Shown: positions 4,044 to 30,605 of the stretch, one piece after another | Position numbering within the stretch: the first letter of the stretch is position 1 | Layout: every line of letters begins with the position of its first letter | NCBI GenBank assembly: GCA_017460585.1 | Contig: JAFUAR010000373.1 | Coordinates: 1 to 38,914, forward strand | Direction: 5' to 3' | From: Clostridia bacterium | GTDB taxonomy: Bacteria; Bacillota; Clostridia; Christensenellales; Aristaeellaceae | DNA: 38,914 nt | Program-made: the position numbers and the translations under genes | The notes under the pieces: generated by a model | Told to the model about the DNA's origin: nothing | The model's input: only the letters and a program-made list of their open reading frames with translations | Databases searched by the model: none

Positions 4044-4050
4044 CCTCCCT

Positions 4051-5832: not shown

Positions 5833-5835
5833 GCT

Positions 5836-6270: not shown

Positions 6271-6306
6271 TGTATAATGGATACAGTTTGATAGGAGGAA
6301 TTGGTT

Positions 6307-6606
6307 ATGACGATTACAGGACTGCTTCCGATCGGTTCCGTGGTACTGCTGAAGGACAGCACCAAGCGCGTGATGATTACGGGCGTATGTCAGGAAGGGA
6401 CTACGGAAAATGGCACCAAGCTGTATGATTATGTCGGCTGCGCGTTTCCGGAGGGATATTTGAGCGCGGATCAGAATTATCTGTTCAATAACGCGCAGAT
6501 TGATAGACTGTACGCCATTGGTTATCAGGATGAGGAATCGCTGCTGTTCAAAGAGCGTGTAGACGAGCTCATTGTTCAGCTTCGCGCGGAGCGCGGCGAA
6601 GAGTAA
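6307..6606 (+). CDS. DUF4176 family protein (T7SSb-associated)
   Basis: GGAGGA lies 8 nt upstream of ATG 6307. LLPIGSVVLLKDSTKRVMITG...YDYVGCAFPEGY...LFNNAQIDRLYAIGYQDEE matches the DUF4176 pattern found in firmicute T7SS loci. Confidence 0.85.
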   Translation: MTITGLLPIGSVVLLKDSTKRVMITGVCQEGTTENGTKLYDYVGCAFPEGYLSADQNYLFNNAQIDRLYAIGYQDEESLLFKERVDELIVQLRAERGEE

Positions 6607-14945: not shown

Positions 14946-15006
14946 GGAAAAGACCCCTTCGTATAAAAAAGGTAAGAATATGGCGTTATTAAGGTATATC
15001 AGGCGT

Positions 15007-15035
15007 ATTATAGCATAAAAACAATTAACACACAA
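15007..15035 (-). promoter_or_regulatory. Candidate sigma-A promoter of the FHA-essC operon
   Basis: Minus strand reads TTGTGT (15035-15030), a 17-nt spacer, then TGc-TATAAT (extended -10; TATAAT at 15012-15007). This is about 60 nt upstream of ATG 14945. Confidence 0.55.
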
Positions 15036-15076: not shown

Positions 15077-15105
15077 TTGACGATACCCCCTACTTGCGGT
15101 AGAAT
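15077..15105 (+). promoter_or_regulatory. Candidate sigma-A promoter of the 23.5-kb surface-protein / FHA / PP2C / kinase operon
   Basis: TTGACG (15077-15082), a 17-nt spacer, then TAGAAT (15100-15105). This is about 68 nt upstream of ATG 15173. Confidence 0.6.
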
Positions 15106-15172
15106 GATAAACAGTAAAAAGGGCGAAGTATGCTTTTTTTCGAAACGGAGAATTTGGAAAGAGGGATTCTAC

Positions 15173-18100
15173 ATGACACTCAAGCGGTTGTTCAGGTTGC
15201 TTCTGGCGGCTGTGCTGGTCGTTGCCATCGCAGTGCCCGCGGGGCTCGTGTTCGCGGAGGGCGACGAGGGCGCGCAGCGCCACCGTCTGCAGTCTGTGGT
15301 AGAGGCGGAGAAGAAGGAAGGGACGAAAAAGTCCAGCCGTTCTGAGCCTCAGAACGTACAGGCTAAAGCGCCTACCGAGGTAGATCCGGACGCGGAAGAG
15401 ATTGCTTCAGAGCAAACGAGCTCTTCCACAATTTATATCGTTCCCAATAGCGCATCCAAGCAGCCGGGAGACGTGGATCCCATGCTCACGGCAATGGTGC
15501 TTGGCGCGGACGGCGCGGACGTGCAATATGTGCTGTATCGCGCTGAAGGCGAAGAGATTGGTCAATACCCCATTTTCGTAACGGTGGTATCGGCTCCAAG
15601 CGGCTACAATGTGGTCGCGCAGCAGGGCGTATTCACCATTGGCGATGCGGAGGATTCCCTCTCGATCTCCTCTGGCAGTACGCATCTCACTTATAACGGC
15701 AAGCCGCAGTCTTACGCGGAATATCGCGCAGTGTATAACGGCACCGAGCTCAAGCCGGATGAATCCGGTTTGGTGTATACGCTGCCCACTGGCGATACGC
15801 TGACCATCAGCAAGGCGGCTACGCTCACCCATGTCAATGAAAGCGCGGCTGCAAATAATACCTTCTCTTATACCCTGAGCAACAAAGAACTCGAAGCGAA
15901 GGTGCATGTGGCATATGGCACAATCACCATTGATCCCGTGCCGCTCACCATTACCGCCAGAAATCAGGATTTCCTGCTCGTAGAGCCCGGCTCGACCGTG
16001 GGCGAGAATTTGGCGACCTATGATGATCCTGAGGTGATCGAAAAGAAGATCATTGTGGAAGGTCTGCAGAACGGCGATACGGTTACGAAGGTGACCTTGG
16101 ACGGTCTGGCTTCCTTCCACGGCAGCTATGAGCTGCGTGTGATCGACGCGGAGGTTTCCGCACCCGATGGCGATTATGAAATTGAGCTGCTTCCCGGCAA
16201 GCTGAATGTTGTAACCGAGATTCCGGATATCCGCATCTCCTCCCTCTCCACCAGCGATCTTTCCGACGCGGAGCAGGCAGGCTGGGTGTACGATGGCAAG
16301 GCGCATTCCCTCAAGCACGCGATCGTGACCTACGGCGGCGAGACGCTTGCGGGCAACGACAATACCTATGTGCTGCCCACCGGCGATACGCTGACGCTCA
16401 CCGGCTTTGCCGCGATCACCAACGCGGGCACGAAGGAAAATACCTTCACCTATACCGTAACGAATCCCGATTTCTATGAAGGACATATTTCCGTAGATAC
16501 CGGCATCCTCACGCTGCGCAAGGCCAATCTGAACGTCAGCGCCAACCGCGTAAAGGAATACAACGGCTCCTATCAGGGACCGAGCGCGGATATGAGCATT
16601 GAAGAGCTGCGCGAGTGGGTCACCCTGAACGGCATTGGCGAGGGAGATCAGCTCTCGGCGGCGAACGTGACCATGGCGGAAGAAGGCGGCGTTCAGGCGG
16701 GTACATACGCGCTGCAGGTCAGCAACATTCGCATTTCCCGCGATGGCGAGGACGCGACCGACAATTACGATATTACCGTAAGCGACGGCGTGCTCACCAT
16801 ACTTCCCCGACCGGTAACGCTGACTCTGAGCAGCACGATTTCGCTCTTCTACGGTGAGAATGATACCGTAAAGGCGAGCGATTACGCTTCTAATATCACC
16901 ATTTCCTCCAACGGCGAGGCTCTGGAGGATGCGCTGACTGCCGAGGTGCTGGGCAACACTACCCTTACGCCCGCCTATCCCAACGGTTACACCGTGGGCA
17001 CCTTCGGCGCGATTGGCAGCTGCGCGAACTTTGATATTACCGTAGACGGCAGCATTCAGATTTTGGATGATACCGGTTTGCGCATTGGCGGAATTGATTC
17101 CCGCGACGCGAGTATTACGCTGAGTCGCGAAAATGTGAAGCTGCCCATCACCTATTCCGTGAGCGTAGCGCTGCCGGAGGGCAAGTACTGCGTGGATTCC
17201 GCGAAGAGCTACGATAATGTCACCGTAGAAACGGGCGCTTCCATTTCCGTAGGAAGCTATCACTACAGCGCTTCCGGACAGAGCTGGGAAGCGGGTCTTC
17301 CCGCGGGCACGGTCATTACCGTAACCCCGATCGTGGAAGGCGAAAGCCTGAAGTCCGCGACTCAGACTGTGGCGCAGAGCAGCGCGACCTTGGCGGCGAG
17401 CATTGAAAAGCCGTTCATTGGTCAGAGCCTCACGCTGGATGTGGAAGTGAACGTTCAGTCTAAGCAGGCCGAGGTTGTAAAGATCGAACTGGTCGAAGGC
17501 AGTATTTCCAAGACCTTCTACGAGACGGTTGGCAATAGCAAGACGGTGCATCTCACCAATTTGGGCGATTTCCCCGATGGCGAAGATATTAAGGCGACTG
17601 TTTCCCTGTTGGACAGCAACGTAAACCTGATCGATGTAGCCGCGGTAACGATCTCCGGTATTTCCAAGTATACCGGCAGCTTTGGCGGCACGGTATCGTT
17701 TGAGAACCGCGGAGATGTAGCGACCATCACCTTGGAGCAGGATGCTGTAGAGATTACCAGCGTGACGATTGACGGGTTTAGTTCTGAAACCTCTGAGCCG
17801 AGTGGTTCCGGTAAGAACTGGACGTATGCCTTGGAGAATTGGAAGAACAATCCGACCAACCTGCCCCCGAAGAGCTCTACCGCCACCGTAAAGTATGTAG
17901 ACAAGTATGGCAATGAAGGCACCGCTACCGGTACCTCTACCATGAGCACCGGCAAGAGCATTACCATTACCTACGCGCAGCCCACCATGGTGCGCGAGAA
18001 CGGTCGACTGGTCGGCATGGAGCTGCGCCTGTCCGGTCAGGGCACCGCGTACGAAAAGATGACCCTGAACGTAAACGGTCGCTCCTATCCGGTGCAGATT

Positions 18101-19108
18101 AGCGGCAGCCGCGGCACTTACGATCTGGAAGCGCGTGGTCAGTGGAGCAAGGATGTCAGCCTGGATGATATCGATCTTGCCGGCGATTCCGTGCGCATCA
18201 GCGCCAAGTACGACAACATCAATGGTTCCGGCTCCGCCGATCCCATCACCTACCGCAAGCTTTACCAGCCCACGCTGGCGGGTTCTCCCGAGCTCATGCG
18301 TTATGATATGGTCTACGGCTTTGCCGATCCCGACGCGACCATCATTATTGAAGTGACCCGCGAGGTGGATGGTCAGACGCAGGTTACCCGCTACGATAGC
18401 GAAACCAATAAGGATATGTTCCAGACCGGCATTACCGGCGGAACGAAGTACTACGTATTCGAGCTTCCGGAGCGCTTCCAGCCCGGCGACCGCGTGGATG
18501 TGTGGTATCGCGACGCGAATGGCGTAGAGGATCTCGCCTCTAAGTATACCTTGATCATTCCCGAAGAGGTCTATGGTCAGACGATGGCGGAGGCGCTTGG
18601 CGCCAATATCATCGATTGGAGCGCGAGCGAGGGACAGAGCGCGGAGCATCACTTCGTCGTACCGGTAAAGGTGGACGAGCTGACCGCGGCGGAAGACCAC
18701 AGCATGACCGTGCCGATTCTGGCGTTCGACGGCTATGTGGTGGGTCACCTCACCCTCACCTTGGAGGGCTCTGAACTCAAGACCACCTGCGATCTGGATC
18801 CGGAATGCGTATACGACGGCGCGGGATATATCCTCCGCTATTACGATACCAAGCCCACCATCGCTCAGCTGGCGGCGGATACTTCCATGAACGACATGAA
18901 CGTGCCGATCGATGTAACGCCTTATGGCAATACCCTGTGGGTATACGCCGGCTTTGAGGTTGAGGTCGATCCGAGCCGCGTGGTATCCATGAACGATTTC
19001 GTGGCGCTCTACGCCGAAAAGAACGAGGAGAGCAAGGTGAATATCGATCCTATGGATCCTGAACTGTACGCCTTGTATATGCAGTTCCAGCAGGTAGAGG
19101 ACGATTAA
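15173..19108 (+). CDS. Large secreted repeat protein with MBG-like and Ig-like modules (1311 aa)
   Basis: Start trimmed to MTLKRLFRLLLAAVLVVAIAVPAGLVFAEG (signal peptide; GGAAAGAGGGA RBS). Recurrent (Y/N)(D/N)GK...Y(T/V)LPTGDTLT(I/L) and ...GxYxI...(D/A)NYDITVxxGxLTI blocks are typical of MBG-type adhesin repeats. No C-terminal TM or sortase motif was seen. Confidence 0.8.
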   Translation: MTLKRLFRLLLAAVLVVAIAVPAGLVFAEGDEGAQRHRLQSVVEAEKKEGTKKSSRSEPQNVQAKAPTEVDPDAEEIASEQTSSSTIYIVPNSASKQPGDVDPMLTAMVLGADGADVQYVLYRAEGEEIGQYPIFVTVVSAPSGYNVVAQQGVFTIGDAEDSLSISSGSTHLTYNGKPQSYAEYRAVYNGTELKPDESGLVYTLPTGDTLTISKAATLTHVNESAAANNTFSYTLSNKELEAKVHVAYGTITIDPVPLTITARNQDFLLVEPGSTVGENLATYDDPEVIEKKIIVEGLQNGDTVTKVTLDGLASFHGSYELRVIDAEVSAPDGDYEIELLPGKLNVVTEIPDIRISSLSTSDLSDAEQAGWVYDGKAHSLKHAIVTYGGETLAGNDNTYVLPTGDTLTLTGFAAITNAGTKENTFTYTVTNPDFYEGHISVDTGILTLRKANLNVSANRVKEYNGSYQGPSADMSIEELREWVTLNGIGEGDQLSAANVTMAEEGGVQAGTYALQVSNIRISRDGEDATDNYDITVSDGVLTILPRPVTLTLSSTISLFYGENDTVKASDYASNITISSNGEALEDALTAEVLGNTTLTPAYPNGYTVGTFGAIGSCANFDITVDGSIQILDDTGLRIGGIDSRDASITLSRENVKLPITYSVSVALPEGKYCVDSAKSYDNVTVETGASISVGSYHYSASGQSWEAGLPAGTVITVTPIVEGESLKSATQTVAQSSATLAASIEKPFIGQSLTLDVEVNVQSKQAEVVKIELVEGSISKTFYETVGNSKTVHLTNLGDFPDGEDIKATVSLLDSNVNLIDVAAVTISGISKYTGSFGGTVSFENRGDVATITLEQDAVEITSVTIDGFSSETSEPSGSGKNWTYALENWKNNPTNLPPKSSTATVKYVDKYGNEGTATGTSTMSTGKSITITYAQPTMVRENGRLVGMELRLSGQGTAYEKMTLNVNGRSYPVQISGSRGTYDLEARGQWSKDVSLDDIDLAGDSVRISAKYDNINGSGSADPITYRKLYQPTLAGSPELMRYDMVYGFADPDATIIIEVTREVDGQTQVTRYDSETNKDMFQTGITGGTKYYVFELPERFQPGDRVDVWYRDANGVEDLASKYTLIIPEEVYGQTMAEALGANIIDWSASEGQSAEHHFVVPVKVDELTAAEDHSMTVPILAFDGYVVGHLTLTLEGSELKTTCDLDPECVYDGAGYILRYYDTKPTIAQLAADTSMNDMNVPIDVTPYGNTLWVYAGFEVEVDPSRVVSMNDFVALYAEKNEESKVNIDPMDPELYALYMQFQQVEDD

Positions 19109-19148
19109 AGCATTGAAGGTTAATCGGCAATCATCATAGCAATGGGCG

Positions 19149-19180
19149 AAGCCGCCCCGGATACAAACGGGGCGGCTTTT
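19149..19180 (+). terminator. Terminator-like hairpin after the 1311-aa gene (possible partial terminator)
   Basis: 11-bp stem AAGCCGCCCCG (19149-19159) / CGGGGCGGCTT (19168-19178) followed by TT. Confidence 0.5.
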
Positions 19181-19201
19181 CCTGAATCGGGGGCGCATGG
19201 A

Positions 19202-20257
19202 ATGCGGAGAAACGACCGAAAAGCAGGCGGACGAGCGCGCGGGAGAGCCAGAAAGCGTAAGCTCTGGGTTTCCGTGGGCGTCGTCTGCCTGTTTCTCATT
19301 GTAGCGCTGCTCATTGGGCGAGCGGTGCAAGACTTTCAACATATGAATGCGCAGACACCCGAGACGCAACCGGTAGAAATGCCCGATCTTAGCGGCGCGT
19401 CAGATGCGAAAGCGCCTGCGGTGGATGAGACCAGCGCATCCGCTAAGACCATATTGACCCATGCGGACGCGCTGCTGCGCATCGCCGCATCGGCGGATAA
19501 TTCCGGTTGGATCAGCGGCGGGCAGGCAACCGTAGTGGGCAAGAACGACGCGGGACAATGCCTTACGGACGATTGGACGGATATCGCGCAGCTTCGGCTG
19601 GGCGACGCGCACGCCATCGCCCTTTCGGCGGATGGACGGCTATTGTTCTCCGGAAGCAACGCGCAGGGACAGCTTGAGCTGGACGCCGGTGGAGAGCCGG
19701 TGCGCTACGTAGAGGCGGGACCCTATGCCAGCTACGCGGTGCTGATGAACGGCACGGCGATCATGGCGGGCGCGGGTCCGGCGACCTCAACCCAGCTCAT
19801 GGCGCAGCGCAATCTACTTGCCCTTGCCGCGAGCGAGAGCCATATCGCATTGCTTTATGCAGACGGCACGGTTGCGTTGCTGACGGATGGCGATGACGCG
19901 CAGGCGGACGTGTCCAGCTGGGAGCATATCGTCGCGATCGACTGCGGATATGGATATACCATCGCTTTGGATGAAAGCGGCACGGTGCGCTTCGCCGGAG
20001 AGGATCGCTACGGTCTGGGCGGTATAGACGGGCTGAAACAGGTTCAGTCCATCGCCGCGGGGGTGAATACCTGCTATGCGGTAATGAACGACGGCACAGT
20101 GCGCGCGTTTGGTTCGAACGGTTCGGGTCAGGCGGAGGTATCCGGTTGGACGAACGTTTCGGCGGTCGCCGCGGGCTATATGCACGCCATTGCCCTTACA
20201 GGGGATATGCGCTTGCTCGGCGCGGGCAGCGCGGCAAACGGTCGGCTGGGAAGGTAG
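19202..20257 (+). CDS. N-terminally membrane-anchored RCC1-like beta-propeller repeat protein (351 aa)
   Basis: MRRNDRKAGGRARGRARKRK followed by TM LWVSVGVVCLFLIVALLIG. Repeated ...HAIALSADGRLLFSGSNAQGQLE..., ...YTIALDESGTVRFAGEDRYGLG..., ...CYAVMNDGTVRAFGSNGSGQAE... and ...HAIALTGDMRLLGAGSAANGRLG blocks. Start chosen downstream of the hairpin; the alternative at 19142 has no RBS. Confidence 0.7.
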   Translation: MRRNDRKAGGRARGRARKRKLWVSVGVVCLFLIVALLIGRAVQDFQHMNAQTPETQPVEMPDLSGASDAKAPAVDETSASAKTILTHADALLRIAASADNSGWISGGQATVVGKNDAGQCLTDDWTDIAQLRLGDAHAIALSADGRLLFSGSNAQGQLELDAGGEPVRYVEAGPYASYAVLMNGTAIMAGAGPATSTQLMAQRNLLALAASESHIALLYADGTVALLTDGDDAQADVSSWEHIVAIDCGYGYTIALDESGTVRFAGEDRYGLGGIDGLKQVQSIAAGVNTCYAVMNDGTVRAFGSNGSGQAEVSGWTNVSAVAAGYMHAIALTGDMRLLGAGSAANGRLGR

Positions 20258-20329
20258 GCTGCGTACGGGGTAAAGCACCCATGGCGCAACCAGAGGAACC
20301 GATGAATGGATAAGGGAAGGGAAGCTGGA

Positions 20330-23300
20330 ATGAAGAAAATCCTGAAAGCAATGCTGGTTTTGGCGCTCGCCCTCGCGCTGCTGCTGCCCGAATGGGCGCT
20401 GGCAGCGGAATCCGGCTACCTGAGCATTGCCGAAATGCATCAGGACAACGACAATAGCGGCAGGGTCTATCTGTATCTCACCTATGTGGAATACAACTGG
20501 CTGGCTCCGAGGGATAATCTCCATTCCGAGGACTTTTATACCCTGACCATGGATTCAAAGCAGATACCGGTGTACAATCCGGTGCTGTATTCCCGCACGG
20601 GCGGTCGCGTGCACTACGTACTGTGCGTGGATGTATCCAAATCCATTAAGGATACCGAACGCCCCAAGGTGAAGGAAGCGCTCACGAACTTTGTGGATAA
20701 TCTGCAAAGCAACGAGATGGTCACCATTATTACCTTCGGCGATAATGTGCAGACCGTCGCCAATGCCTTGAGCGACAAGAACCAGCTGCGCAGCCGGATC
20801 GATTCCATCGATTGGACCGGCAACACTACGCAGCTGTACGAGGGTGTGAAGACCGCCATGGACGCCGCCAGCGTGAAGCGCATGGAGGACGCTCAGGTGG
20901 GGCGCACCGCCGTAGTGCTCATTACCGACGGCGTAGACGAGACCAGCGAGACCAGCAAATATACCCCGAGCGCGGTGTTGGACGCCATTATCAATACCAA
21001 TGTGCCGGTATATGTGCTGTATTTTGACCGCAGCGGCAAGGATCAGCAGAGCATTACCGAACTGAACAGCTTTGTCAACGCTTCGGGCGGCTTGTTCAAA
21101 ATGCTGGATGCGCCCTCTCTGCAGACCATACTTAAGAATATTGGCGATCTCACGCGCAATTGCGTACAGATTTCCACCCAGCTCGTCAATGAGGGACAGG
21201 GCGCGACGCAGCCCGATTCGGGCTATCCCTTTCAGGTGACGGAGGGCAACGGCAAGAAATCCGCGGAGCATAATTTCATAGTGGACTTCCAGCGCCTGCC
21301 CGATCCTACGCCCGAACCCGATCTCGCCGTAGACGAGACCACCATCGTACCCATTACCGAGGATTTTGAAGCCATCACCGTCCGCACGGAGCCCAACTCC
21401 ACCGTAACCATTTCCCGCAAGGGGCAGACGCTCTATCAGGATACCTCCAACGGTTCGGGCGAGCTGACTTGGCATTTTGACGCGGAGACCGTGAAGCTGC
21501 GCAAGGGCGAGACCATTTCCGTAGACGTGGAGGATCCCTCCCATAACCGGCTGCCGGAGCCTGTAACCGCGGAGGTGGGCGAATCGTCGCGCGAGCAGAT
21601 TACCAAGCTGGAAATCGACGGCATGGACGGCGACAACGTAATTTACGGGTCGAACTTTACCATTACCGGCTACGCCGAGCCCGATGCACAGGTGCTTGTG
21701 AGCTGGGTGAACAACAACGCCGGCGGCGCGCTGCACGAGGATGTCATTTCCGTAAAGAGCAACGGCTACTTTGAGGCGACGCTGGATTATGGTACCTCCA
21801 ATAATCCCGATACCACCATGGCGCGTGGCTATGTGGATGTGAAGTACGCGGATTATCTCGCCTACAGCCGTTGGTCGAGCACGAGCGGGCAGATCGCTTG
21901 GTACCGTGATCCCAAGCCGGAGATTGACGACCATATCGACCGCTTTGAAGTCGATCCCATTACGGAAGATACGGATGTGCTGCGCGCGGATACGGAGGCG
22001 AACTCCACCGTATACGTAAGCTGGCAGGGCTTTGAGGATCATTCGCAGGCGAACGAACAGGGCGTATGGGAATATCCCATTCGCCGCCTCAAGCCGGATA
22101 CGCAGGTGGTGCTCTACGCGATTGATCCCGCGGGCAACCGCAGCGAAAACGTGACCAAGGTGGTCAATCCGTCTACACGCGATAAGATTACCATGAACAT
22201 CTCCGAGCTGGGAGAAGGCGGCACCGTGAATTCGGAAACGCTGACCGTGACCGGCAACGCCGAACCCGGCGAGATAGTGCGCGTTACTTGGATGTCGGAC
22301 AGCGAGCCTGTACCGCGCCCCAAGAAGTGCGAGGTGAATGAATACGGGCACTATCGCGCGGTCTTTACCAACGAGGAGTGCGCTGGCGGCGAGGGATACT
22401 TTACCGCCATTTACGACGACGGCAACGCCAGCAGCAAGCGCGCGGACGATCGGCAGGTGGTGTGGAACAACGCCCCGCCCACGCCCGTGCCCACGGAGGT
22501 ACCCGTAACTGAAGCGCCTACGCCCGTACCCAGTCCCACGCCCAGCGAAGCGCCCACGGCGACTCCCGCACCGACCATTCCGGCAACGCCGGAACCCACG
22601 CCGGAACCTACCGCCGAACCCACGCCGGAGCCCACGGCGACTCCCGCGCCATGGCCGCAGAACTGGATCATCAGTTTTACCGATTATTTCGGCGGACCGG
22701 ACGAGATGCTGGAGAATCCGCGCTTCTGGATACTCGCGGCGGCGGTGCTGCTGTTCATCGCGCTCATCGTGCTGCTGATCGTGCTGCTCGCCAAACGCGG
22801 GCGCAAGCGCACGCGTACGCCCGGTATGGACGCGGCGGAGGATATGCCCCGCAAGGATGGCGGCGCGGCAAGTCAGGCGGGCACCATCCGTCAGGGCGGC
22901 GCGCCGAGCGGACCGGATTCGGGCATGACCCTGCCCAGAAACGCCACGCCTCCCGCAGGCGGATTTGATCTGAATTCTACCATCCCCATGCAGCCTTCGA
23001 CCGGCACGGTGCGCATTGAAAAGAAACAGAATGTAATGCCGACCGGTACGGTGCGCATCCGCAAAAACGGTCCCGCGCCCATTCAGCTGGATATACTGGA
23101 AACGAGGAGCTTCGCGGGCATATCCAATGAACGCACCGCAGCGCTGGCGACGGAGCTGATCGTAGGTCGCGATCAGAGCTGCGCGTTCCCCGTACAGGAT
23201 GAGACCGTGTCGACGCGCCATTTGAAGCTGGAGCGCGATGGTTCGGCGGTGTTCGTTACCGACCTGAACTCCTCCAACGGCACCAAGCTGAACGGGACGC

Positions 23301-23386
23301 CGGTAACCGAAAAGACCCCCTTGAACAGCGGCGATACGCTGGAGATCGGTCGCACGACTCTGTTAATTCGCTTTAACGCGCAATAA
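20330..23386 (+). CDS. Single-pass membrane protein: signal peptide, extracellular vWA head, Ig-like A-B-A-B stalk, PT linker, TM and cytoplasmic FHA (1018 aa)
   Basis: MKKILKAMLVLALALALLLP signal peptide. vWA/MIDAS signatures HYVLCVDVSKSI (D-x-S-x-S), VTIITFGD and AVVLITDGVDET. TM FWILAAAVLLFIALIVLLIVLLA (about 22724-22792). FHA LIVGRDQSCAFPVQDETVSTRHLKL...LNSSNGTKLNG. Confidence 0.88.
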   Translation: MKKILKAMLVLALALALLLPEWALAAESGYLSIAEMHQDNDNSGRVYLYLTYVEYNWLAPRDNLHSEDFYTLTMDSKQIPVYNPVLYSRTGGRVHYVLCVDVSKSIKDTERPKVKEALTNFVDNLQSNEMVTIITFGDNVQTVANALSDKNQLRSRIDSIDWTGNTTQLYEGVKTAMDAASVKRMEDAQVGRTAVVLITDGVDETSETSKYTPSAVLDAIINTNVPVYVLYFDRSGKDQQSITELNSFVNASGGLFKMLDAPSLQTILKNIGDLTRNCVQISTQLVNEGQGATQPDSGYPFQVTEGNGKKSAEHNFIVDFQRLPDPTPEPDLAVDETTIVPITEDFEAITVRTEPNSTVTISRKGQTLYQDTSNGSGELTWHFDAETVKLRKGETISVDVEDPSHNRLPEPVTAEVGESSREQITKLEIDGMDGDNVIYGSNFTITGYAEPDAQVLVSWVNNNAGGALHEDVISVKSNGYFEATLDYGTSNNPDTTMARGYVDVKYADYLAYSRWSSTSGQIAWYRDPKPEIDDHIDRFEVDPITEDTDVLRADTEANSTVYVSWQGFEDHSQANEQGVWEYPIRRLKPDTQVVLYAIDPAGNRSENVTKVVNPSTRDKITMNISELGEGGTVNSETLTVTGNAEPGEIVRVTWMSDSEPVPRPKKCEVNEYGHYRAVFTNEECAGGEGYFTAIYDDGNASSKRADDRQVVWNNAPPTPVPTEVPVTEAPTPVPSPTPSEAPTATPAPTIPATPEPTPEPTAEPTPEPTATPAPWPQNWIISFTDYFGGPDEMLENPRFWILAAAVLLFIALIVLLIVLLAKRGRKRTRTPGMDAAEDMPRKDGGAASQAGTIRQGGAPSGPDSGMTLPRNATPPAGGFDLNSTIPMQPSTGTVRIEKKQNVMPTGTVRIRKNGPAPIQLDILETRSFAGISNERTAALATELIVGRDQSCAFPVQDETVSTRHLKLERDGSAVFVTDLNSSNGTKLNGTPVTEKTPLNSGDTLEIGRTTLLIRFNAQ

Positions 23387-23445
23387 GAACAATCAATCGC
23401 CCGAAAGGAGAGCATCCCTTCGGGCACAAGTGGGAGTGAGCTTTT

Positions 23446-26400
23446 ATGAAGCGTGTGTGGATATTATGTCTGGCATTGGCGCTGTTTCTGTTGAGTGCGA
23501 CCGCCTTGGCGGATACGCAGGTGACAGATCTGAGCGGGCTGTTCGGCGGCGCAGGCGCTACGGAAACGCAGACGCTGCAGGCGGACCTGAGCAAGGATCT
23601 GAGCCTTGAATTGTGGGATCTGCCATACGGCGGTCGCTGGATCATTTATTCCGATGATATCCCGCGCTTTGCAGCCAACGGCGGATTGTCCACGGAGATG
23701 AGCACCAGTCAGGAGCTGCATAAGGACAAGATCGATATCTGGGCGGACGAAATGGACGGTCTGGATGAGATCGATCTTGAAGTGAAGCTCAGCCTGAACG
23801 GATACAACAACAATACCCCCGCGATTGTGTGGAAGGGTCATATCGTCAACGACGCCATGGCGGGTCGTAAGACCATTACGCTGGAAGCGATTCGCGTAAG
23901 CAAGCAGGGCGGCGCGGAAATTGTGTTTACAGAACAGGGATTTGCCGAGGGCACGTTTGAATCGAGCGATACCGTTGTAATCGAGCTGGCGCAGGGCGTG
24001 CATTTGGATGAGAGCTCTTTGGGCGCGCCCGTAACGCAAAGTGCGGAGGGCGTGTACGAAATGCCGCTTTCCAATGTATCTTCCGGCGAATATCGCTTTC
24101 AGACGGCGGAAATGGACGCATATGGCGTAAGCTATATGGCGTTTCGCCAGCTCACCATGAGCATAGTTGGCGCTTCGCAGCCGGTAGCGGAAGCGCCAAT
24201 TGTGGAGCAGCCTGCGGAATCTCAGCAAACCGTCGTTTCCGTTTCGCCGGCAGAGGAAGCCACGATTCCGCAAGAAGCGATCGCTCCGGAGACTGACGCG
24301 GCGCAGAGCGCGGCGGATCTTTCCAGCTGGGATTTGAATGCGGGAACGCAGGGCGCTTCCGGTGCAATTTTGGTACAGATCGACCCCGTGAGCGAGGATA
24401 GCGGTGTGATTATTGTGCGCACGGAGGCGTACGCCGAGGTTACGCTCATGCAGGGCGCTGCGGAAATCGATTTGGGCATCGCGGATGGCGAAGGCGTATA
24501 TACGTATAATGTCGCTGAAAACGGGCTGAAGCTGAGCGAGGGTCAGGAGATTCGCGCCCGCGCTTCGGACGGATACGATCGAAGTGAGGAAGCGTCCACA
24601 ACCGTAGGTATGTCGGAACGCGCGTTGATTCGAGTGTCCGTAGACGGCGTGTCCGAAGGGGCGTGCTATAGTCCCGTATTGCAAATCGAGGGCAGCGCAG
24701 ATCCGGATCAAATGATTCGCGTACAGTGGTTCCCAGATGGTTTGACCGCGCCCGAACCTATAGTGGTGCAAGCGGCGGGGAACGGCAGCTTTACCGCGGA
24801 AGTGCGCTTTGACGATGCGCATCCCGCGCTTGAATCGGTGACCGGACACGTGAGCGCGGCATATGCCGACGGGCTCGCCGCCAGCCGTTCGGGCGACAGC
24901 GGTAGTTTCCTATGGGCGCGCGAAGTGCCCGTGCCGCCGGATACGGAGCTGAGCGGACTGCTCGTGCTCCCCGTGACCGAAGACAGCGCTGAAATTGTAG
25001 TGCAAACGGAAGAAAATGCGCACATCGTCATCGCGCAGGATGGTGCGACGCTCGCCGAGGGCGACGCGGATGACAATGGCGATTGGCGTTGGACGCTGCC
25101 GGATGGTTACGCGTTGCCCGCGAAGCAGACGCTTAGCGTGACGGCTACCGACGAGGCGGGCAACAGCGGCAGCGCGGAGGTCGCGGTAGGCGTATCCACC
25201 CGCGAAGCCATCGTGCTGTCCGTGCGCAACGTGGATGGCGCGCAGCATTTGCTGAACCGTGAAACCATGACCGTAGTGGGGCGTTCACAGGAAAACGAGC
25301 CCGTACGCGTGGGCTGGTATACGCCCGAGGGCGTGCTGCTGGCGGAAGAGACCGTGCAGGAAGGCGGAAACTGGAAGGTGGAGCTGGAGGGCGATCTGGA
25401 TACCGACGGAGAGGGCTATGTAGCGGCGGTATACGCCGATGGACGCGCAAAGAGCAAGAGTACGCGTTCGGAATCCTTTACATGGGATCACGCGCTGCCT
25501 ACGCCCGAACCCACCGCGGAGCCCACGCCTGAACCCACCGCGGAACCTACGCCCGAACCTACCGAAGCGCCTACGCCCGAGCCCACCATTCCGCCGGCAA
25601 CGGAAGCGCCCACCGCGGAACCCGAGCCGGAACCCACGGAGGAGCCTGCGCAGGAACCGGATATCGTGGATTTGACGAACGATTCGACGCCTTCGCCGGA
25701 TGCGCCTATTGAAGACGAAGGCTTTATTGAGGAGTGGAAAGAGCGTTTCGAGGATGAACCCATGCTTCTGGTTGGCGCGATTGCCGCTTTGCTGGCGGTA
25801 ATCGGCGGTATTGTCGCTGCAATTGTTCTTTCCGGAAAGAAGCGCAAGGCCGCAAGGCGTAAGCAGGATTTTCTGGTGCGCGCCAGCGAGGATGCGCCGC
25901 GACCGGTGAGCGAACAGTCTGTCAGCCAGACGGTGCGCCAAAATAATCCCGCGGGCGGCGTGCAGGGAACAATAATATCGCCCATAAACGGCGTGACGAA
26001 TGCTGCGCCGCAGCAGACGTTCGTGCCCCAGCCGACCGCGCCCATATCGCATATTCCCACGCCTCCCGCGGGCGGCACGGGAACCACGCGAATCGGGCAG
26101 ATCAATCTGGACCAGACCCGAGAGATTGGCGGAGGCGGCACTGTGCGCCTTGGCACGCAGGCGATTCAAATGAAGTTTGAGGAGCGCAGAGATTTTGCGG
26201 GTGTGCTCAACCACCGCACCGCGCCTTTGGTAGACGGTATGGTGCTGGGGCGCGACGCGGGTTGCGACTTTGTGATTACGGATGAGACCGTGTCGTCCAG
26301 ACACGCGCGCATTACGCGCGAAGGTCCCATGGTATTTGTGGAGGATCTGCATTCGTCCAACGGTACTACGCTGAACGGGCAGGATGTTCTCGCGAAGATG

Positions 26401-26460
26401 GAGCTGCACTCCGGCGACGTGCTGGAGGTTGGCAGAACCGTGTTGAAGGTTCAGTTTTAG
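23446..26460 (+). CDS. Single-pass membrane protein: signal peptide, unknown head, Ig-like A-B-A-B stalk, PT linker, TM and cytoplasmic FHA (1004 aa)
   Basis: MKRVWILCLALALFLLSATALA signal peptide. TM LLVGAIAALLAVIGGIVAAIVLSG (about 25762-25836). FHA MVLGRDAGCDFVITDETVSSRHARI...LHSSNGTTLNG. The C-terminal ~650 aa are colinear with the 20330..23386 product. Confidence 0.88.
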   Translation: MKRVWILCLALALFLLSATALADTQVTDLSGLFGGAGATETQTLQADLSKDLSLELWDLPYGGRWIIYSDDIPRFAANGGLSTEMSTSQELHKDKIDIWADEMDGLDEIDLEVKLSLNGYNNNTPAIVWKGHIVNDAMAGRKTITLEAIRVSKQGGAEIVFTEQGFAEGTFESSDTVVIELAQGVHLDESSLGAPVTQSAEGVYEMPLSNVSSGEYRFQTAEMDAYGVSYMAFRQLTMSIVGASQPVAEAPIVEQPAESQQTVVSVSPAEEATIPQEAIAPETDAAQSAADLSSWDLNAGTQGASGAILVQIDPVSEDSGVIIVRTEAYAEVTLMQGAAEIDLGIADGEGVYTYNVAENGLKLSEGQEIRARASDGYDRSEEASTTVGMSERALIRVSVDGVSEGACYSPVLQIEGSADPDQMIRVQWFPDGLTAPEPIVVQAAGNGSFTAEVRFDDAHPALESVTGHVSAAYADGLAASRSGDSGSFLWAREVPVPPDTELSGLLVLPVTEDSAEIVVQTEENAHIVIAQDGATLAEGDADDNGDWRWTLPDGYALPAKQTLSVTATDEAGNSGSAEVAVGVSTREAIVLSVRNVDGAQHLLNRETMTVVGRSQENEPVRVGWYTPEGVLLAEETVQEGGNWKVELEGDLDTDGEGYVAAVYADGRAKSKSTRSESFTWDHALPTPEPTAEPTPEPTAEPTPEPTEAPTPEPTIPPATEAPTAEPEPEPTEEPAQEPDIVDLTNDSTPSPDAPIEDEGFIEEWKERFEDEPMLLVGAIAALLAVIGGIVAAIVLSGKKRKAARRKQDFLVRASEDAPRPVSEQSVSQTVRQNNPAGGVQGTIISPINGVTNAAPQQTFVPQPTAPISHIPTPPAGGTGTTRIGQINLDQTREIGGGGTVRLGTQAIQMKFEERRDFAGVLNHRTAPLVDGMVLGRDAGCDFVITDETVSSRHARITREGPMVFVEDLHSSNGTTLNGQDVLAKMELHSGDVLEVGRTVLKVQF
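25498..25593 (+). repeat. Four tandem 24-nt repeats encoding (PTPEPTAE)n in the juxtamembrane linker
   Basis: Units at 25498-25521, 25522-25545, 25546-25569 and 25570-25593: cctacgcccgaacccaccgcggag and three close variants. Confidence 0.85.
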
Positions 26461-26540
26461 CGTTTGATCGAAGCATGGAAAGCCGGGGTGGCATCGCTCC
26501 GGCTTTCTATGGAAAATGTACATCGATGGGGGAAACGGGT

Positions 26541-29500
26541 ATGAGGTATGGGCTGAAAGGTTTAGGAATTTTGCTGCTTGCGGTACTGCTGGTTTGCGCG
26601 CCCGCGCTGGGCGAGGAAGCTGCACCGACAAGTGTTCCACTTGCGTCGGTTATAGGCAATATCGAAGCACCAGTACCCGTGAAGCCCCATTATGCCCTCT
26701 ATGATTGGAGCGCCGTGTGCGAATTGTCGGAAGAGCTCTCGCAGGATGCTCCGATTGAATGTGATTTCTCGCAGGATATCCGTTTTGTATTCAACGATAT
26801 ACCGAAAGAATTTGGTATTGAGATAGAAATAGACGGACAGCAGAGGGAACAACTCGAAAGCAGAGAATACACGCTTGCCGTTGGATCTATTCCAACGGAC
26901 AATGTGGTTGTGGCTGTATATCTCGCTGCCTCTGAATGGAGTGAGCCCAAGCCGATTTGGAGGGGCACGCTGCAGAGCGGCGGCGAGATAAAGGATATTC
27001 ATCTGTATTTGCTCTATACCCTGCAGAATGATACCGTACTGGAGGAGAAGGAACCGGTTATAGATGGAAGAATTCCCGTTTCCGCTGAAGCGGAACAGGA
27101 ATCGGTAGAGTTATCCGTGTGGTTGGCAAAAGGGTTGCAACTAGAAGGACCTTTGGCGATCAACTCAGGAAGCGATGGGAACTATACCGTTGTTTGGAAT
27201 AAGAATAATCTGTTCTTTTCACTGTATTCCAACGAGGGCTATGGCGATCAAGACCGCAAATGGGTAGAGCACCGTTACGCATTGGTTGAAGATGGTGAGG
27301 ACAAAATCAGTTCTGAATCCACGATTGCTCCTTCGGATGAATTCACGGATGAACCCAGTGCCTCTCCCGAGCCGCAGGATACGAGCGCGATTGTAGATAC
27401 GGCGTCTCCTTCCCCCGCGCCTACGCCCATACCCGTAGCATTGGAAATTTACTTAAAGGGAAAAGAGAATGCAATTCAGCTGATGCCCTCAATGGATCAG
27501 CGAGTGATCAGCGGAATATATGCGTTGGAGATTCGTACCTCGAGCGATATTGACTGGACACAGGTAAATGTATTGGTTTCAGGCGTTCCGGCAACCATTG
27601 AAGAGATCGACGGCAGCAGAATCGTCGAATTGACTGTGGAACACCATTCCGCAACGGAAATCCAAGTGTTTTATCAAGCCAAACCTCAGGGAACCTATAG
27701 TTTAAAAGGCTATCAGCCAATCCGCATTACGAATAAGGAAGAGGTTACAGAAGAATATCGTCAGGGAAGCAAAAGCGCAGATATTTCGTTTACTATAGAC
27801 GATGGCTATTTGAACGGAAATAAAGATGTCGATATCCGCATTGAAGAGGGATTGGAGGGCGATTTTCTGGTTCCCAAAACCCTCGATAATATGACGCTTA
27901 TTGATTCTGGAAATTATAGCTATACACTGAATATTCCGGAAAGAGTAGAGGGAATCTATACTTTTTCGATTCGATATGTCGCTTCGAGGGAGTACGTCGA
28001 GCCGCGAGAGCAGCTTGAAGGAATTGAGGACGCATCTTCCATTCATCTTACGGTCGATACGAAGGCACCACAGTGCATTGGCGTTCAAATCAACGATACG
28101 GAGATTGATAAATTAAATGAAGCCCTCAAAGCGGAAGTATATGCCAATACGAAACAGGCGGAGGTATCCGTAACCTTCGATGAGTCGGTGGAATTGTATG
28201 TGAACGGCGAAAAGCAGGCGGGTGAAGCCAAAGCGAAGTGGAATATTTCCGTTGATATTCCGCAGGATGGCGCGCCGGTACGAATTTCGGCAAAGGACGG
28301 TTTTGGCAATGAGACCAAAGCGCCTGTGGAAATTGGATTTGATATTATAGACCCAATTGGAAATGTGACGCTAATGGATCAATCGTCCGGAGAGACGCTA
28401 GGCGGCGAATTGCTGGAAGGGAAAAAGGATATTTCGCTCCATATAGAGGGGTCGAAGGGGCATACGCCGGAGGGCAGCTACCATTTTGACGACGAACCGG
28501 AAGAAACCATTAAGCCCGTAAGATCGTCCATAGGCGAGGGGTGGGATGTCTTCATTCCGCTCGAGGGTGTAAGCAATGCGTGTAAGACCCTCACCCTCAC
28601 GCTCGCGGGGGAGGATACGCCCTATAAGTGGATTATCGATTTGGAACCGCCCGAGGCGCAGGTTCAGTCGATTACCGCCGAAGAAGGCGGCAAATCGACT
28701 TACAGTGCGCAGAAGAACGCGCTCACTTGGTTGAGCGGTGAAGCGCTTAGCGTTACGCTGGACAATCCCAAGGGCGATGTTGAGCGCGTCGAGCTGAACA
28801 ATGCGCCGATCTGGGTTCGGGAACAAGGAGGCATTGAGAAGGAATCCTCTTCCCAAATTGAGTTTACCCTAGATGCCGAGCGCGTAAATGGAGCGGAATC
28901 CATTGTCTTTGATCTGTTCGATGAATACAATAATTCCAGCAACACAAAGCCCATCTCTGTACGGGCTTTTGTGCCCGCTCCCATTGAGATTGCCTTGGAA
29001 GAAGACGAACAACAGGTCGCGTTTGGCGGGACAAAGGCTCTCGAACTGAATGGTAGTGCCGAATCCGGTTGGGCGCTGATTGCAAAGCTGGGCGAAGCAG
29101 AGGGAATCTCTATTGCGGTGGATGAAAATGGCGAATGGACGCAGACATTTGAACCGGAGCAGTATCCCGAAAGCGAGACGACGCTGACGCTCTCCTATGA
29201 AAACGGACTGGGAGAGACAAAAGACATTGACGTAACAATTGATCAAACGTGCGAGATTGACTTCCCCGAATCCGTGACCGAAGGGGACGACTTTATCGAA
29301 TTAGAGGCGCTGGAGGACGGCGTTACGGTCATCGTGAAGCTGAATTCTGAAGTTGTATCGCGCTTTGCCGAAGGGGAAGCGGGGGAGGTTCTGCTCACTG
29401 CGGAAGGAAAGAACAAAGTCGAGATCACCCAAAGCGCGAAATTGGGCGATGAATATCTCATCCAAGCGATCGACCAATATGGCAATGAGAAGACGACCGA

Positions 29501-30605
29501 CGAACCCATTCGCGTAGTCGCTAAAGAAGGAGACATTAAGGACTTTGCATTGACTGCCAACGGCAATTCCATAGTAAGCGGAGCGTTCATTCAGTACGAT
29601 GGCGGTCCCATCGCCTTTACGGGCACTCCCAATCCGGAAGGAAGGCTAACCGTGGAAGTGACGAAGGACGGTGCGCAGATCGAAGTATCGGAGCAAACCG
29701 GCGCGTTTGCGCTGGAAAACGCCGAAGACGGCGAATATAGCGTAATGGCGAGGCTCGCGGACTACCAGAATATCCACTCGGAGCCGATCATATTCACCAT
29801 AGACAACACCAAGCCCGTCGTTCAATGCGCCTCCGATATTTCCGACCTCGCGGCGCAGCTCGAGCTTTCCGCCGATGAAGACAGTAAATTCAAAGTGGAA
29901 ATTGATGGAGCGCTCGCGTATGAGAGCGAAGACTTCGAAAACGGAGCGATCGTATCGATCGATTGGGAGAAAGACGTACTTTGGCAGGCGAAGGAGATCG
30001 CCATTATTGCAATGGATCGCGCGGGCAATATTTCCGAAACGAAGAAAGTCGCAATTACGCCCACGGACGCGTACAGAGTATGGCTCGATACCGCGCCGGA
30101 ACGCGTGGAGCAGGGGCAGATGATTACCGTAACGGGTACGCTAGCCTACCGAGGCGCGGATCGACCGACGGTGCAGGCGCAGCTGCTCTCCGCGGAGGAT
30201 AAACCGCTTCGGGACAGCAAGGGCGGCGAGCTTCAACCTGTAGAAGTAGAGTGGGGCGAGGAAGCGCCGGTTAACGAGGCGTCTATTGAAGGAATGCGCG
30301 CCGACCATTTGCAGAAGTTTTCCGCCGCGTTCCGCGCGGAGGACTATCCGAGGGGCGAAGCGAAGGTGCGATTGATCGTGAAAGAGGCGCAGGAGCTCAC
30401 CGATCGGAGCGTGCAAATCGATCTGAACAGCGGAAAGCGCACGCGTTATATCGCCATAATCGCCGCGCTGGGCGTTGCGCTGATCGTAGTGCTGATCGCT
30501 TTGGCAATCGTCAGCAAAAAGATTTCCGCGCTCAAGGACGCGGAGATCGATCGCCGCAGCCGCGCGAGTAACCTGACCATCCGACAGAAGGGCGGTCGCC
30601 CGTAA
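26541..30605 (+). CDS. Large surface protein with signal peptide, repeat-rich ectodomain, C-terminal TM and a 27-aa cytoplasmic tail (1354 aa)
   Basis: Start trimmed to MRYGLKGLGILLLAVLLVCAPALGEE (GGGGGA RBS). TM YIAIIAALGVALIVVLIALAIV, then tail SKKISALKDAEIDRRSRASNLTIRQKGGRP. Visibly lower GC than neighbouring genes. Confidence 0.8.
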   Translation: MRYGLKGLGILLLAVLLVCAPALGEEAAPTSVPLASVIGNIEAPVPVKPHYALYDWSAVCELSEELSQDAPIECDFSQDIRFVFNDIPKEFGIEIEIDGQQREQLESREYTLAVGSIPTDNVVVAVYLAASEWSEPKPIWRGTLQSGGEIKDIHLYLLYTLQNDTVLEEKEPVIDGRIPVSAEAEQESVELSVWLAKGLQLEGPLAINSGSDGNYTVVWNKNNLFFSLYSNEGYGDQDRKWVEHRYALVEDGEDKISSESTIAPSDEFTDEPSASPEPQDTSAIVDTASPSPAPTPIPVALEIYLKGKENAIQLMPSMDQRVISGIYALEIRTSSDIDWTQVNVLVSGVPATIEEIDGSRIVELTVEHHSATEIQVFYQAKPQGTYSLKGYQPIRITNKEEVTEEYRQGSKSADISFTIDDGYLNGNKDVDIRIEEGLEGDFLVPKTLDNMTLIDSGNYSYTLNIPERVEGIYTFSIRYVASREYVEPREQLEGIEDASSIHLTVDTKAPQCIGVQINDTEIDKLNEALKAEVYANTKQAEVSVTFDESVELYVNGEKQAGEAKAKWNISVDIPQDGAPVRISAKDGFGNETKAPVEIGFDIIDPIGNVTLMDQSSGETLGGELLEGKKDISLHIEGSKGHTPEGSYHFDDEPEETIKPVRSSIGEGWDVFIPLEGVSNACKTLTLTLAGEDTPYKWIIDLEPPEAQVQSITAEEGGKSTYSAQKNALTWLSGEALSVTLDNPKGDVERVELNNAPIWVREQGGIEKESSSQIEFTLDAERVNGAESIVFDLFDEYNNSSNTKPISVRAFVPAPIEIALEEDEQQVAFGGTKALELNGSAESGWALIAKLGEAEGISIAVDENGEWTQTFEPEQYPESETTLTLSYENGLGETKDIDVTIDQTCEIDFPESVTEGDDFIELEALEDGVTVIVKLNSEVVSRFAEGEAGEVLLTAEGKNKVEITQSAKLGDEYLIQAIDQYGNEKTTDEPIRVVAKEGDIKDFALTANGNSIVSGAFIQYDGGPIAFTGTPNPEGRLTVEVTKDGAQIEVSEQTGAFALENAEDGEYSVMARLADYQNIHSEPIIFTIDNTKPVVQCASDISDLAAQLELSADEDSKFKVEIDGALAYESEDFENGAIVSIDWEKDVLWQAKEIAIIAMDRAGNISETKKVAITPTDAYRVWLDTAPERVEQGQMITVTGTLAYRGADRPTVQAQLLSAEDKPLRDSKGGELQPVEVEWGEEAPVNEASIEGMRADHLQKFSAAFRAEDYPRGEAKVRLIVKEAQELTDRSVQIDLNSGKRTRYIAIIAALGVALIVVLIALAIVSKKISALKDAEIDRRSRASNLTIRQKGGRP

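Follow-up and report, generated by a model that had tools for sequence, protein, structure and literature searches.

In a 38,914-nucleotide (nt) stretch of DNA from a Clostridia bacterium (assembly GCA_017460585.1, contig JAFUAR010000373.1, forward strand; this whole stretch is called the window), two adjacent genes, here named A and B, encode proteins with a signal peptide, an N-terminal head, a stalk of immunoglobulin (Ig)-like modules, a transmembrane (TM) segment, a linker and an FHA domain at the C-terminus. Their architecture, homology, synteny and linker motifs make it somewhat probable that A and B are outside-in coupling subunits, which link a receptor, a kinase and the ATPase EssC of a type VII secretion system (T7SS). 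Coordinates of the features are collected in Table 1.

The open reading frame (ORF) of A begins upstream of the gene, and the true start of A is probably at position 20330 (M9, MKKILK...), because a purine-rich GGGAAGGGAAG ribosome-binding stretch precedes it and the N-termini of homologues agree with this position. In BLASTP, A (residues 347-1023) and B (residues 312-1004) were aligned with 31% identity over 750 columns (E 1e-77). This bore out the first-pass annotation, made from the sequence alone, which had described a paralogous pair with a colinear C-terminal part of ~650 amino acids (aa). Off-diagonal BLASTP matches between the two proteins (E 1e-15 and 5e-13) reflect an internal a-b-a-b repeat. 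Pfam scans identified VWA (residues 105-276, 1.6e-14), Big_6 and FHA (residues 952-1015, 3.2e-17) in A, and Big_6 and FHA (residues 933-996, 1.4e-18) in B. The a-b-a-b order of Ig modules that had been described was recovered by the Big_6 matches together with the off-diagonal alignments. The parts that had been placed after it, namely a PT/PE-rich linker, one TM segment, a Thr/Gly/Pro-rich cytoplasmic linker and a canonical FHA domain, were recovered by Pfam, hydropathy and the sequence.

On the evidence of a profile match and a structure model, the head of A is a true vWA domain. It scored 55 bits against the VWA profile (PF00092, cutoff 23.8). An AlphaFold2 (AF2) model of residues 1-360, built from an 8-sequence alignment, reached a predicted local distance difference test score (pLDDT) of 81 and a predicted template modelling score (pTM) of 0.78, and showed the alternating β/α pattern of a vWA domain at residues 101-292, with flanking strands on the N-terminal (38-89) and C-terminal side (307-324). 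A Foldseek search of this model against the PDB returned ITIH1 (3.7e-13), ArnB in fourth place (4.6e-12) and many vWA domains with a probability of 1.0; further matches included a Catenulispora vWA protein, integrin I domains, BatB, SpaC, Mfa5 and PilB. The single match of the A head to the PDB at the sequence level was ArnB (8s05). In an alignment of orthologues, all five positions of the metal ion-dependent adhesion site (MIDAS), D109, S111, S113, T175 and D208, were invariant in 13 sequences. By sequence, the head of A carries a complete MIDAS, as had been proposed, and may bind a metal.

The head of B had been left unassigned, and it stayed so. Residues 23-305 gave no Pfam match even at E<=10, no match in a PDB sequence search and no homologue in a word-indexed database search. 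A single-sequence AF2 model of the B head (pLDDT 41) was unusable. A weak local match (28% identity over 164 aa) was found to the N-terminus of a TsxI-like surface protein of locus L003 (L003 4326-5570), with which residues 46-65 of B (window 23581-23640) have the 20-residue motif AD.SKD....LWDLP.G.RW in common. The N-terminal heads of the TsxI-like proteins are mostly unalignable between loci. Sequence comparison indicates that the B head is a lineage-specific orphan domain, and the motif common to B and L003 is a hint that heads may have been exchanged between surface proteins of this T7SS.

Both signal peptides look cleavable, between ..ALA and AE in A and between ..ALA and DT in B, and each protein has only one further hydrophobic segment. 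The 15 residues upstream of this segment contain 1-2 Lys/Arg, compared with 6-8 downstream. Following the positive-inside rule, the C-terminus is predicted to be cytoplasmic, so that the linker and the FHA domain would lie inside and the head, stalk and Pro/Thr-rich linker outside. The neighbouring gene products agree with this topology: the membrane kinase encoded downstream has an N-terminal catalytic domain, a TM segment, a Pro/Thr-rich segment and an ectodomain, and the PP2C phosphatase has no TM segment. An extracellular FHA domain was rejected on the basis of the positive-inside rule, the wall linker on the opposite side of the membrane and the cytoplasmic kinase and PP2C domains. Neither an extracellular FHA domain nor a spurious vWA call was found, and the arrangement of an outside head and an inside FHA domain in the first-pass annotation was retained. 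A and B were also rejected as T7SS substrates, because they have Sec signal peptides and stop-transfer TM segments.

The FHA domains scored 63.2 bits (A) and 67.5 bits (B) against PF00498 (cutoff 20.7). The residues that bind phosphothreonine (pThr) are G954-R, S969-T-R-H and N991-G in A and G935-R, S950-S-R-H and N972-G in B. These three motifs, G-R in the β3-4 loop, S-x-x-H in β4-5 and N-G in β6-7, are conserved across the 13-member family, and the alignment showed that they are also kept in the FHA domains of EssC and of FHA417, one of two small TM-anchored FHA proteins encoded next to EssC. In the other small protein, FHA193, the phosphate-binding G-R is replaced by G-Q, with S-x-x-H and N-G kept; judged from these residues, its phospho-binding may be unlike that of the other FHA domains of the locus.

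The cytoplasmic linkers of A and B, which are disordered and ~100 aa long, contain three T-[V/I/T]-R motifs each (AGTIRQ, TGTVRIE and TGTVRIR in A; SQTVRQ, TGTTRIG and GGTVRLG in B). Outside FHA cores and ectodomains, the motif is absent from the other proteins of the window. Among the 13 family members it was counted 42 times in ~1840 aa of linkers, versus 13 times in ~11500 aa of ectodomains. In a composition-preserving shuffle, 10 of the 13 proteins reached p<=0.001 for the motif frequency and 2 more reached <=0.0065, and p was 0.053 for a paralogue of locus L007 that has a single motif. A tandem pair of G-T-V-R-[I/L/M] with a spacing of 14-16 residues, whose Thr has I, L or M at position +3, lies just upstream of the FHA domain in 12 of the 13 members, the L007 paralogue being the exception. 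One member has 7 motif copies over a linker of 224 aa. The pT+3 residue is the main specificity position of FHA domains, and a hydrophobic residue at this position (pT-x-x-I/L) is a common preference. The GTVR[I/L/M] motif is compatible with this preference and is regarded as a candidate phospho-motif.

To collect homologues, a profile of the A and B stalks was searched with HMMER against 1.84 billion representative proteins. The stalk alone was used since a word search with whole A, likely swamped by Pro/Thr low-complexity words, gave almost nothing. Most of the 840 matches were giant Big_6 adhesins, and full-length a-b-a-b matches were of two kinds only: A-type proteins with a vWA head, TM segment, linker and FHA domain (P0006, P0014, P0017, P0024, P0025, P0030 and the truncated P0023), and membrane kinases homologous to the kinase of the window (P0035, P0052, P0054 and P0058). 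Family members differ in their count of a-b modules, which ranges from 2 to 5 or more pairs. Word searching for the linker and FHA domain of A returned two short fragments only and is therefore uninformative on other ectodomains joined to this tail. Five loci were identified in a scan of one genome per species, all in metagenome-assembled genomes (MAGs) of uncultured Clostridiales/Clostridia, and four of these five assemblies are named as rumen or ruminant-gut. Four further representatives were located by exact-sequence look-up, and a scan of Joint Genome Institute (JGI) metagenomes gave one fragment of the A-type family.

Nine loci had enough flanking sequence for comparison (the window, L004-L008, L010, L013 and L015). 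The A-type gene lies beside the block of EssC and TM-FHA genes in 7 of the 9 loci and beside the PP2C gene in 6 (in 5 of them also beside the kinase), and it adjoins the EssC/TM-FHA block, PP2C and the kinase, or both in every one of them. Where flanks allow, one arm has the shared order YukD-like, 158-180-aa protein, LytTR, EssC, FHA~190, FHA~390, and the divergent arm has the order (MBG), (RCC1), A-type, (second FHA receptor), (TsxI-like), PP2C, kinase, with brackets marking genes that are not always present. In L010 the same genes are rearranged on a single strand, in L015 PP2C follows A almost directly, and the TsxI-like gene is missing from one locus. This synteny marks the A-type protein as a conserved part of the T7SS. 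That the kinase, PP2C and FHA-receptor genes constitute a separate module for signalling at the cell envelope or in adhesion, merely adjacent to the T7SS, is very improbable, although modules of Ser/Thr kinase, PP2C and FHA proteins, some with vWA, occur in many unrelated contexts (the Deinococcus DRA0331-0334 operon, Sulfolobus ArnA/ArnB): the adjacency held in all nine loci, including the one whose gene order differs, the searches above showed no A-type protein in any other setting, and the small TM-FHA genes are contiguous with EssC.

A second, B-type copy occurs only in the species of the window and in L007. When FHA regions are compared, the best match of B is A (50% identity) and that of the L007 paralogue is the A-type protein of L007 (47%), with small margins in both cases. 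These values are consistent with independent duplications followed by replacement of the head.

By its gene content, EssC, WXG100 and YukD-like, the locus is an atypical T7SS that is probably closest to the T7SSd/e/j group. The first-pass annotation of the pair had mentioned neither this context nor the synteny of the A-type gene, the stalk modules of the kinase and the GTVR motifs. Six small WXG100-like ORFs were identified in the window, several of them above the WXG100 cutoff; the YukD-like protein is below its cutoff (21 versus 27 bits) and syntenic in seven other loci. Among the window ORFs of at least 150 aa, no Pfam or NCBIfam match to EssA, EssB or EsaA was found within these 39 kb, beyond which such genes are possible, and because of this absence from the window the system was not classified as a canonical T7SSb. 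The membrane kinase keeps the glycine loop, AxK, HxD, DFG and APE and is of the non-RD type (HLD). Its ectodomain contains, at residues ~786-1680 (window 33965-36649), several a-b stalk modules that are homologous to the stalks of A and B (E 1e-12 and 3e-17).

Garrett, Higginson and Palmer (2024) catalogued T7SSc-j systems with kinases, PPM phosphatases and FHA proteins, and hypothesised control by pThr (PMC11217815). In these systems TsdC, TseC and TsjC carry pThr-competent FHA domains, and TsxI consists of a signal peptide, Ig domains and a TM segment (PMC11217815). The present locus resembles T7SSd, T7SSe and T7SSj (TsxC, the kinase TsxD, the PPM phosphatase TsxF, TsxI and TsxJ) in an EssC with a pThr-competent N-terminal FHA domain, a membrane kinase whose C-terminus is extracellular, a PPM phosphatase, YukD-like and WXG100 proteins, a protein with signal peptide, Ig domains and C-terminal TM segment, and separate FHA proteins. 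It differs in that no component with the order signal peptide-vWA-Ig-TM-FHA has been described there, the sole vWA protein being the cytoplasmic TscE of T7SSc (PMC11217815). The kinase ectodomain is Ig-rich here but helical or composed of TPR there, and the FHA proteins are TM-anchored here. DUF6382, the N-terminal domain of TsxJ, was not matched by FHA417 or FHA193 at E<=10, nor by A or B in the Pfam scan. Compared with TsxI, which has a Sec signal peptide, Ig domains, a C-terminal TM segment and a short tail, A and B add a cytoplasmic linker and an FHA domain, together ~200 aa; the gene at 26475-30605 fits the description of TsxI better. The catalogue was drawn from RefSeq (PMC11217815), and the A-type family is known only from MAGs.

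In the mechanism proposed for A and B, the Pro/Thr linker and the Ig stalk of four modules would place the distal head beyond the cell wall or peptidoglycan. When the heads engage a ligand or partner, or cluster, the kinase, built on the same stalk modules, would join A and B and phosphorylate threonines in their linkers. The pT-x-x-[I/L/M] sites could then be read by the FHA domains of the cluster, that is, those of A and B in trans, of the EssC N-terminus and of the two small TM-FHA proteins. Cross-linking of receptor, kinase and EssC would assemble or activate the secretion ATPase, and the PP2C phosphatase would reset the system. A and B would thus act as integrin-like couplers, and the locus would be the T7SS counterpart of the PpkA/PppA/Fha1 pathway of type VI secretion. 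We infer motif phosphorylation, FHA-motif binding, ligand binding and an effect on secretion, and A and B are regarded as putative receptors. In a bolder form, which is possible but doubtful, A-type proteins would be an undescribed class of single-chain, integrin-like receptors, in which the MIDAS head, carried by the Ig stalk past the Gram-positive wall, senses contact with a target surface, the same chain passes the signal through the membrane, a G-pT-V-R-[I/L] code written by the kinase and read by FHA domains directly licenses EssC, and head-swapped duplicates (B and the L007 paralogue) widen recognition.

Several points weigh against such a signalling role. The FHA domains of canonical T7SSb EssC function independently of pThr (PMC11217815). 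The vWA head is moderately conserved (mean identity 34%) and not hypervariable, and therefore a constant partner fits as well as a foreign ligand. The second GTVR copy is only ~8 residues before strand β1 of the FHA domain, and EssC and FHA417 show β-like hydrophobic segments where it sits; because of this, the second copy may be structural and not a phospho-site. The topology of A and B was derived from hydropathy and charge rules and not from a dedicated predictor. Furthermore, metagenomes or MAGs are the source of all sequences, and the family is very small, with ~8 clusters at 50% identity, 5 genome loci and 1 JGI fragment. The position of the second GTVR, the β-like segments and a head that does not diversify would all suit A and B being purely structural, as a wall-spanning stator or conduit or as an adhesin (compare EsaA of T7SSb and TsxI of T7SSd/e/j), in which the FHA domain serves to anchor the protein constitutively, and independently of phosphorylation, to EssC or the kinase, and GTVR is a β-strand extension or docking strand. 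The binding of the EssB pseudokinase by T7SSb EssC FHA domains without pThr (PMC11217815) is a precedent for such an anchor. However, the G-R, S-x-x-H and N-G residues are conserved in the A/B family, EssC and FHA417, an active-looking kinase and PP2C are always co-encoded, motif copies occur far from the FHA domain, as in the linker with seven, and a separate TsxI-like gene is usually present alongside A, so a purely structural role is considered unlikely.

An experimental precedent for the coupling role proposed for A and B is found in Schaalia, where Esr, an epibiont-sensing pathway, was shown to control Esx by an Ig-filament/β-propeller sensor, kinases, a phosphatase and an FHA protein (bioRxiv 2026, PMC13622651). 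The FHA output protein of Esr is phosphorylated at a Thr that lies in a disordered region, upstream of the FHA domain at the C-terminus, and Esr is genetically linked to esx, is sometimes fused to EccC and was reported to be confined to Actinomycetes (PMC13622651). An Ig-rich surface sensor, a β-propeller (the sensor head there, a separate RCC1 gene beside A here), a kinase, a phosphatase and an FHA domain are shared by both systems. However, the sensor EsrA and the FHA output EsrG are separate proteins in Esr, whereas A and B fuse ectodomain and FHA domain across the membrane. In addition, the vWA domain in Esr accompanies a MoxR ATPase and a transglutaminase, and family-profile scans of the window ORFs gave no match to MoxR/AAA_3 or transglutaminase.

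As the Schaalia Esr1 sensor-kinase-FHA pathway acts on transcription (PMC13622651), A and B might also be sensors with a transcriptional output, in which ligand binding sets off kinase signalling and the FHA/pThr relay ends on the LytTR regulator and induces T7SS and effector genes, instead of gating the machine. Indeed, in all loci with sufficient flanking sequence, EssC is syntenic with a LytTR protein whose N-terminal domain is non-canonical. However, no link between LytTR and the FHA or kinase proteins is visible in the sequences, EssC itself carries a pThr-competent FHA domain, membrane-tethered A would need a further soluble relay, and the Esx-adjacent Esr2 pathway is post-translational (PMC13622651). 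A transcriptional output is therefore regarded as rather improbable, and the direct coupling of A and B to the kinase and EssC is preferred.

PpkA, a kinase of the type VI secretion system (T6SS) with an extracellular vWA sensor domain, acts via Fha1 and the phosphatase PppA in the H1-T6SS of P. aeruginosa (PMC3224232). As is proposed for the present locus, the PpkA/PppA/Fha1 pathway has a secretion machine controlled by a Hanks kinase of the membrane, a PP2C phosphatase and an FHA protein, with an extracellular vWA domain as the presumed sensor (PMC3224232, PMC11217815). The echo of PpkA seen in the first-pass annotation is apt as a logic of vWA sensor, FHA domain and phosphatase, but the components differ: here a monoderm has a T7SS as the machine, the vWA domain is on the FHA protein and not on the kinase, the FHA protein is single-pass with an Ig stalk, and the kinase has a 2000-aa Ig ectodomain. 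A PpkA-type kinase with vWA on one polypeptide was not found, A having no kinase domain and the kinase of the window no vWA match.

The mycobacterial proteins FhaB/FipA (Rv0019c) and FhaA (Rv0020c) are reportedly membrane-associated FHA proteins and kinase substrates with phospho-Thr in the linker before a C-terminal FHA domain. The NCBIfam family FhaB_Rv0019c matched the C-termini of A, B and FHA193 with 3e-18 to 6e-12, all below the cutoff (63-66 versus 125 bits). In contrast to A and B, FhaB/FipA and FhaA are not known to have a large ectodomain, a vWA domain or a role in T7SS. Integrins and vWA adhesins of pilus tips (SpaC, RrgA-type, PilB, Mfa5) also hold a MIDAS vWA head on Ig-like legs away from the cell, and integrins share a single TM segment with a cytoplasmic tail that recruits adaptors. 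However, there is no orthology at the sequence level, the pilus adhesins are sortase-linked and have no TM segment or FHA domain, and integrin tails bind talin/kindlin and not pThr. In Sulfolobus, the partnership between ArnA (FHA) and ArnB (vWA) is regulated by Ser/Thr phosphorylation (PMC6509490, PMC12852372). In contrast to A, the two proteins form a complex in the cytoplasm, which regulates expression of the archaellum and has vWA and FHA on the same side of the membrane.

Only the FHA part of A and B was matched by Pfam Yop-YscD_cpl (PF16697; 2e-13 and 8e-14), and NCBIfam GltG matched weakly. Similar to A and B, YscD/PrgH of type III secretion systems and Myxococcus GltG have a cytoplasmic FHA domain, one TM segment and an envelope-spanning domain in a trans-envelope machine; however, their polarity is opposite (FHA N-terminal, N-in) and the domains with which they build rings in the periplasm bear no relation to the Ig/vWA ectodomain. 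Assignment to canonical T7SSb, TsxJ, PpkA, Esr or YscD was rejected, as the defining features that were tested for were absent. Literature searches gave no description of a protein with the order signal peptide-vWA-Ig-TM-FHA.

A and B would extend the control of secretion by kinases, phosphatases and FHA proteins, the new elements being the fused receptor architecture and the conserved candidate phospho-motif. As the first experimental link of a kinase and an FHA protein to T7SS, Esr, is from Actinomycetes only (PMC13622651), the present locus offers a compact and testable counterpart in Bacillota. Here, a single protein combines a sensor-like ectodomain with a reader of phosphopeptides, and the locus also has a kinase on the same stalk and an EssC with a pThr-competent FHA domain. 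If the proposed mechanism is true, the receptor architecture would be new, a defined code of peptides would control T7SS in gut and rumen Clostridia, and the locus would offer a way to learn what these uncultured organisms recognise on neighbouring cells. The rarity of the family and its confinement so far to uncultured Clostridia limit its reach, but the locus lends itself to direct testing.

Table 1. Features of genes A and B and of the surrounding T7SS locus (window positions, unless a residue range or another locus is given).
Feature	Position	Strand	Description
ORF A	20306-23386	+	1026 aa
Gene A	20330-23386	+	Signal peptide, β-sandwich + vWA head, a-b-a-b Ig stalk, PT linker, TM, linker, FHA
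A head	20408-21322	+	Residues 35-339; vWA domain inserted in small β-sandwich
A MIDAS D109-x-S111-x-S113 (DVSKS)	20630-20644	+	Sequence, exact position
A MIDAS T175	20828-20830	+	Sequence
A MIDAS D208	20927-20929	+	Sequence
A stalk	21323-22471	+	Residues 340-722; Big_6-like Ig modules, a-b-a-b
A Pro/Thr-rich linker	22472-22675	+	Sequence; presumed cell-wall-spanning
A TM segment	22718-22792	+	Residues 805-829, then KRGRKRTR
A cytoplasmic linker	22793-23080	+	Disordered; AGTIR 22877-22891, TGTVR 23000-23014 and 23042-23056
A FHA domain	23081-23383	+	G-R, S-x-x-H, N-G; Pfam 3.2e-17
Gene B	23446-26460	+	1004 aa; signal peptide, orphan head, acidic linker, a-b-a-b stalk, PT/PE linker, TM, linker, FHA
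B head	23512-24357	+	Residues 23-245, β-rich, + 60-aa acidic Pro/Gln/Glu linker
B stalk	24358-25491	+	Residues 305-682; a-b-a-b
B TM segment	25768-25836	+	Residues 775-797, then KKRKAARRK
B cytoplasmic linker	25837-26160	+	SQTVR 25924-25938, TGTTR 26077-26091, GGTVR 26134-26148
B FHA domain	26161-26457	+	Pfam 1.4e-18
L007 B-type paralogue	L007 9069-11948		959 aa; signal peptide, different Ig-like ectodomain, TM, long Gln/Pro/Gly-rich linker with one GGTVRL, FHA
EssC-type T7SS ATPase	8202-13100	-	TIGR03928, 964 bits (cutoff 778)
EssC N-terminal FHA	residues 112-175	-	Pfam FHA 4.6e-10; G-R, S-x-x-H, N-G kept
Small TM-anchored FHA protein (FHA193)	13151-13732	-	FhaB/FipA-like architecture; family profiles + hydropathy
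Two-TM protein (FHA417)	13782-15035	-	Weak peptidoglycan-binding match outside, C-terminal FHA inside
TsxI-like protein	26475-30605	+	Signal peptide, Ig-rich ectodomain, C-terminal TM, 30-aa tail
PP2C/PPM phosphatase	30627-31580	+	Cytoplasmic; PP2C_2 3.8e-13; metal-binding motifs intact
Membrane Ser/Thr kinase	31610-38683	+	2357 aa; Pkinase 2.8e-32; N-terminal cytoplasmic kinase, TM 339-357, ~2000-aa ectodomain
LytTR DNA-binding protein	7422-8168	-	N-terminal 140 aa: no receiver or other Pfam match
158-aa protein	6949-7425	-	No family; beside LytTR gene
Substrate-like region	1197-6606		Six WXG100-like ORFs; 608-aa, two-TM and DUF4176 proteins
608-aa protein	4006-5832		EspC/LXG-like (WXG-like) N-terminus, glycine-rich C-terminus
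144-aa two-TM protein	5836-6270		Could be immunity factor
DUF4176 protein	6301-6606		2e-27
1343-aa MBG (YGX-type) domain protein	15077-19108		N-terminal hydrophobic anchor/signal; opens operon containing A
RCC1-type β-propeller protein	19142-20257	+	371 aa, N-terminally TM-anchored; directly upstream of A

Some further observations were made on the neighbouring genes. Every related locus with sufficient flanking sequence keeps the genes for the 158-aa protein and the LytTR protein in synteny with EssC and the YukD-like gene. Orthologues of the MBG protein reach ~2000 aa and are present in several related loci. The RCC1 propeller is predicted to face outward, because 9 Lys/Arg precede its N-terminal TM segment; it was found in three related loci and recalls the β-propeller head of the Esr sensor EsrA. 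The tail of the TsxI-like protein (window 30513-30602) was compared with those of the orthologues in L004, L005, L007 and L008. The pattern [RK]L[KR][DE]A.[IV]D....S.LTI[RK]K was present in 4 of these 5 loci and its Thr in all 5; from this comparison, the tail Thr is a possible further target of the kinase and FHA domains. The 59-nt gap between A and B holds an imperfect hairpin, GCCCGAAAGG-N8-CCTTCGGGC (window 23399-23425). No T-run follows it, and therefore it is perhaps an element of RNA stability or processing and not a terminator.

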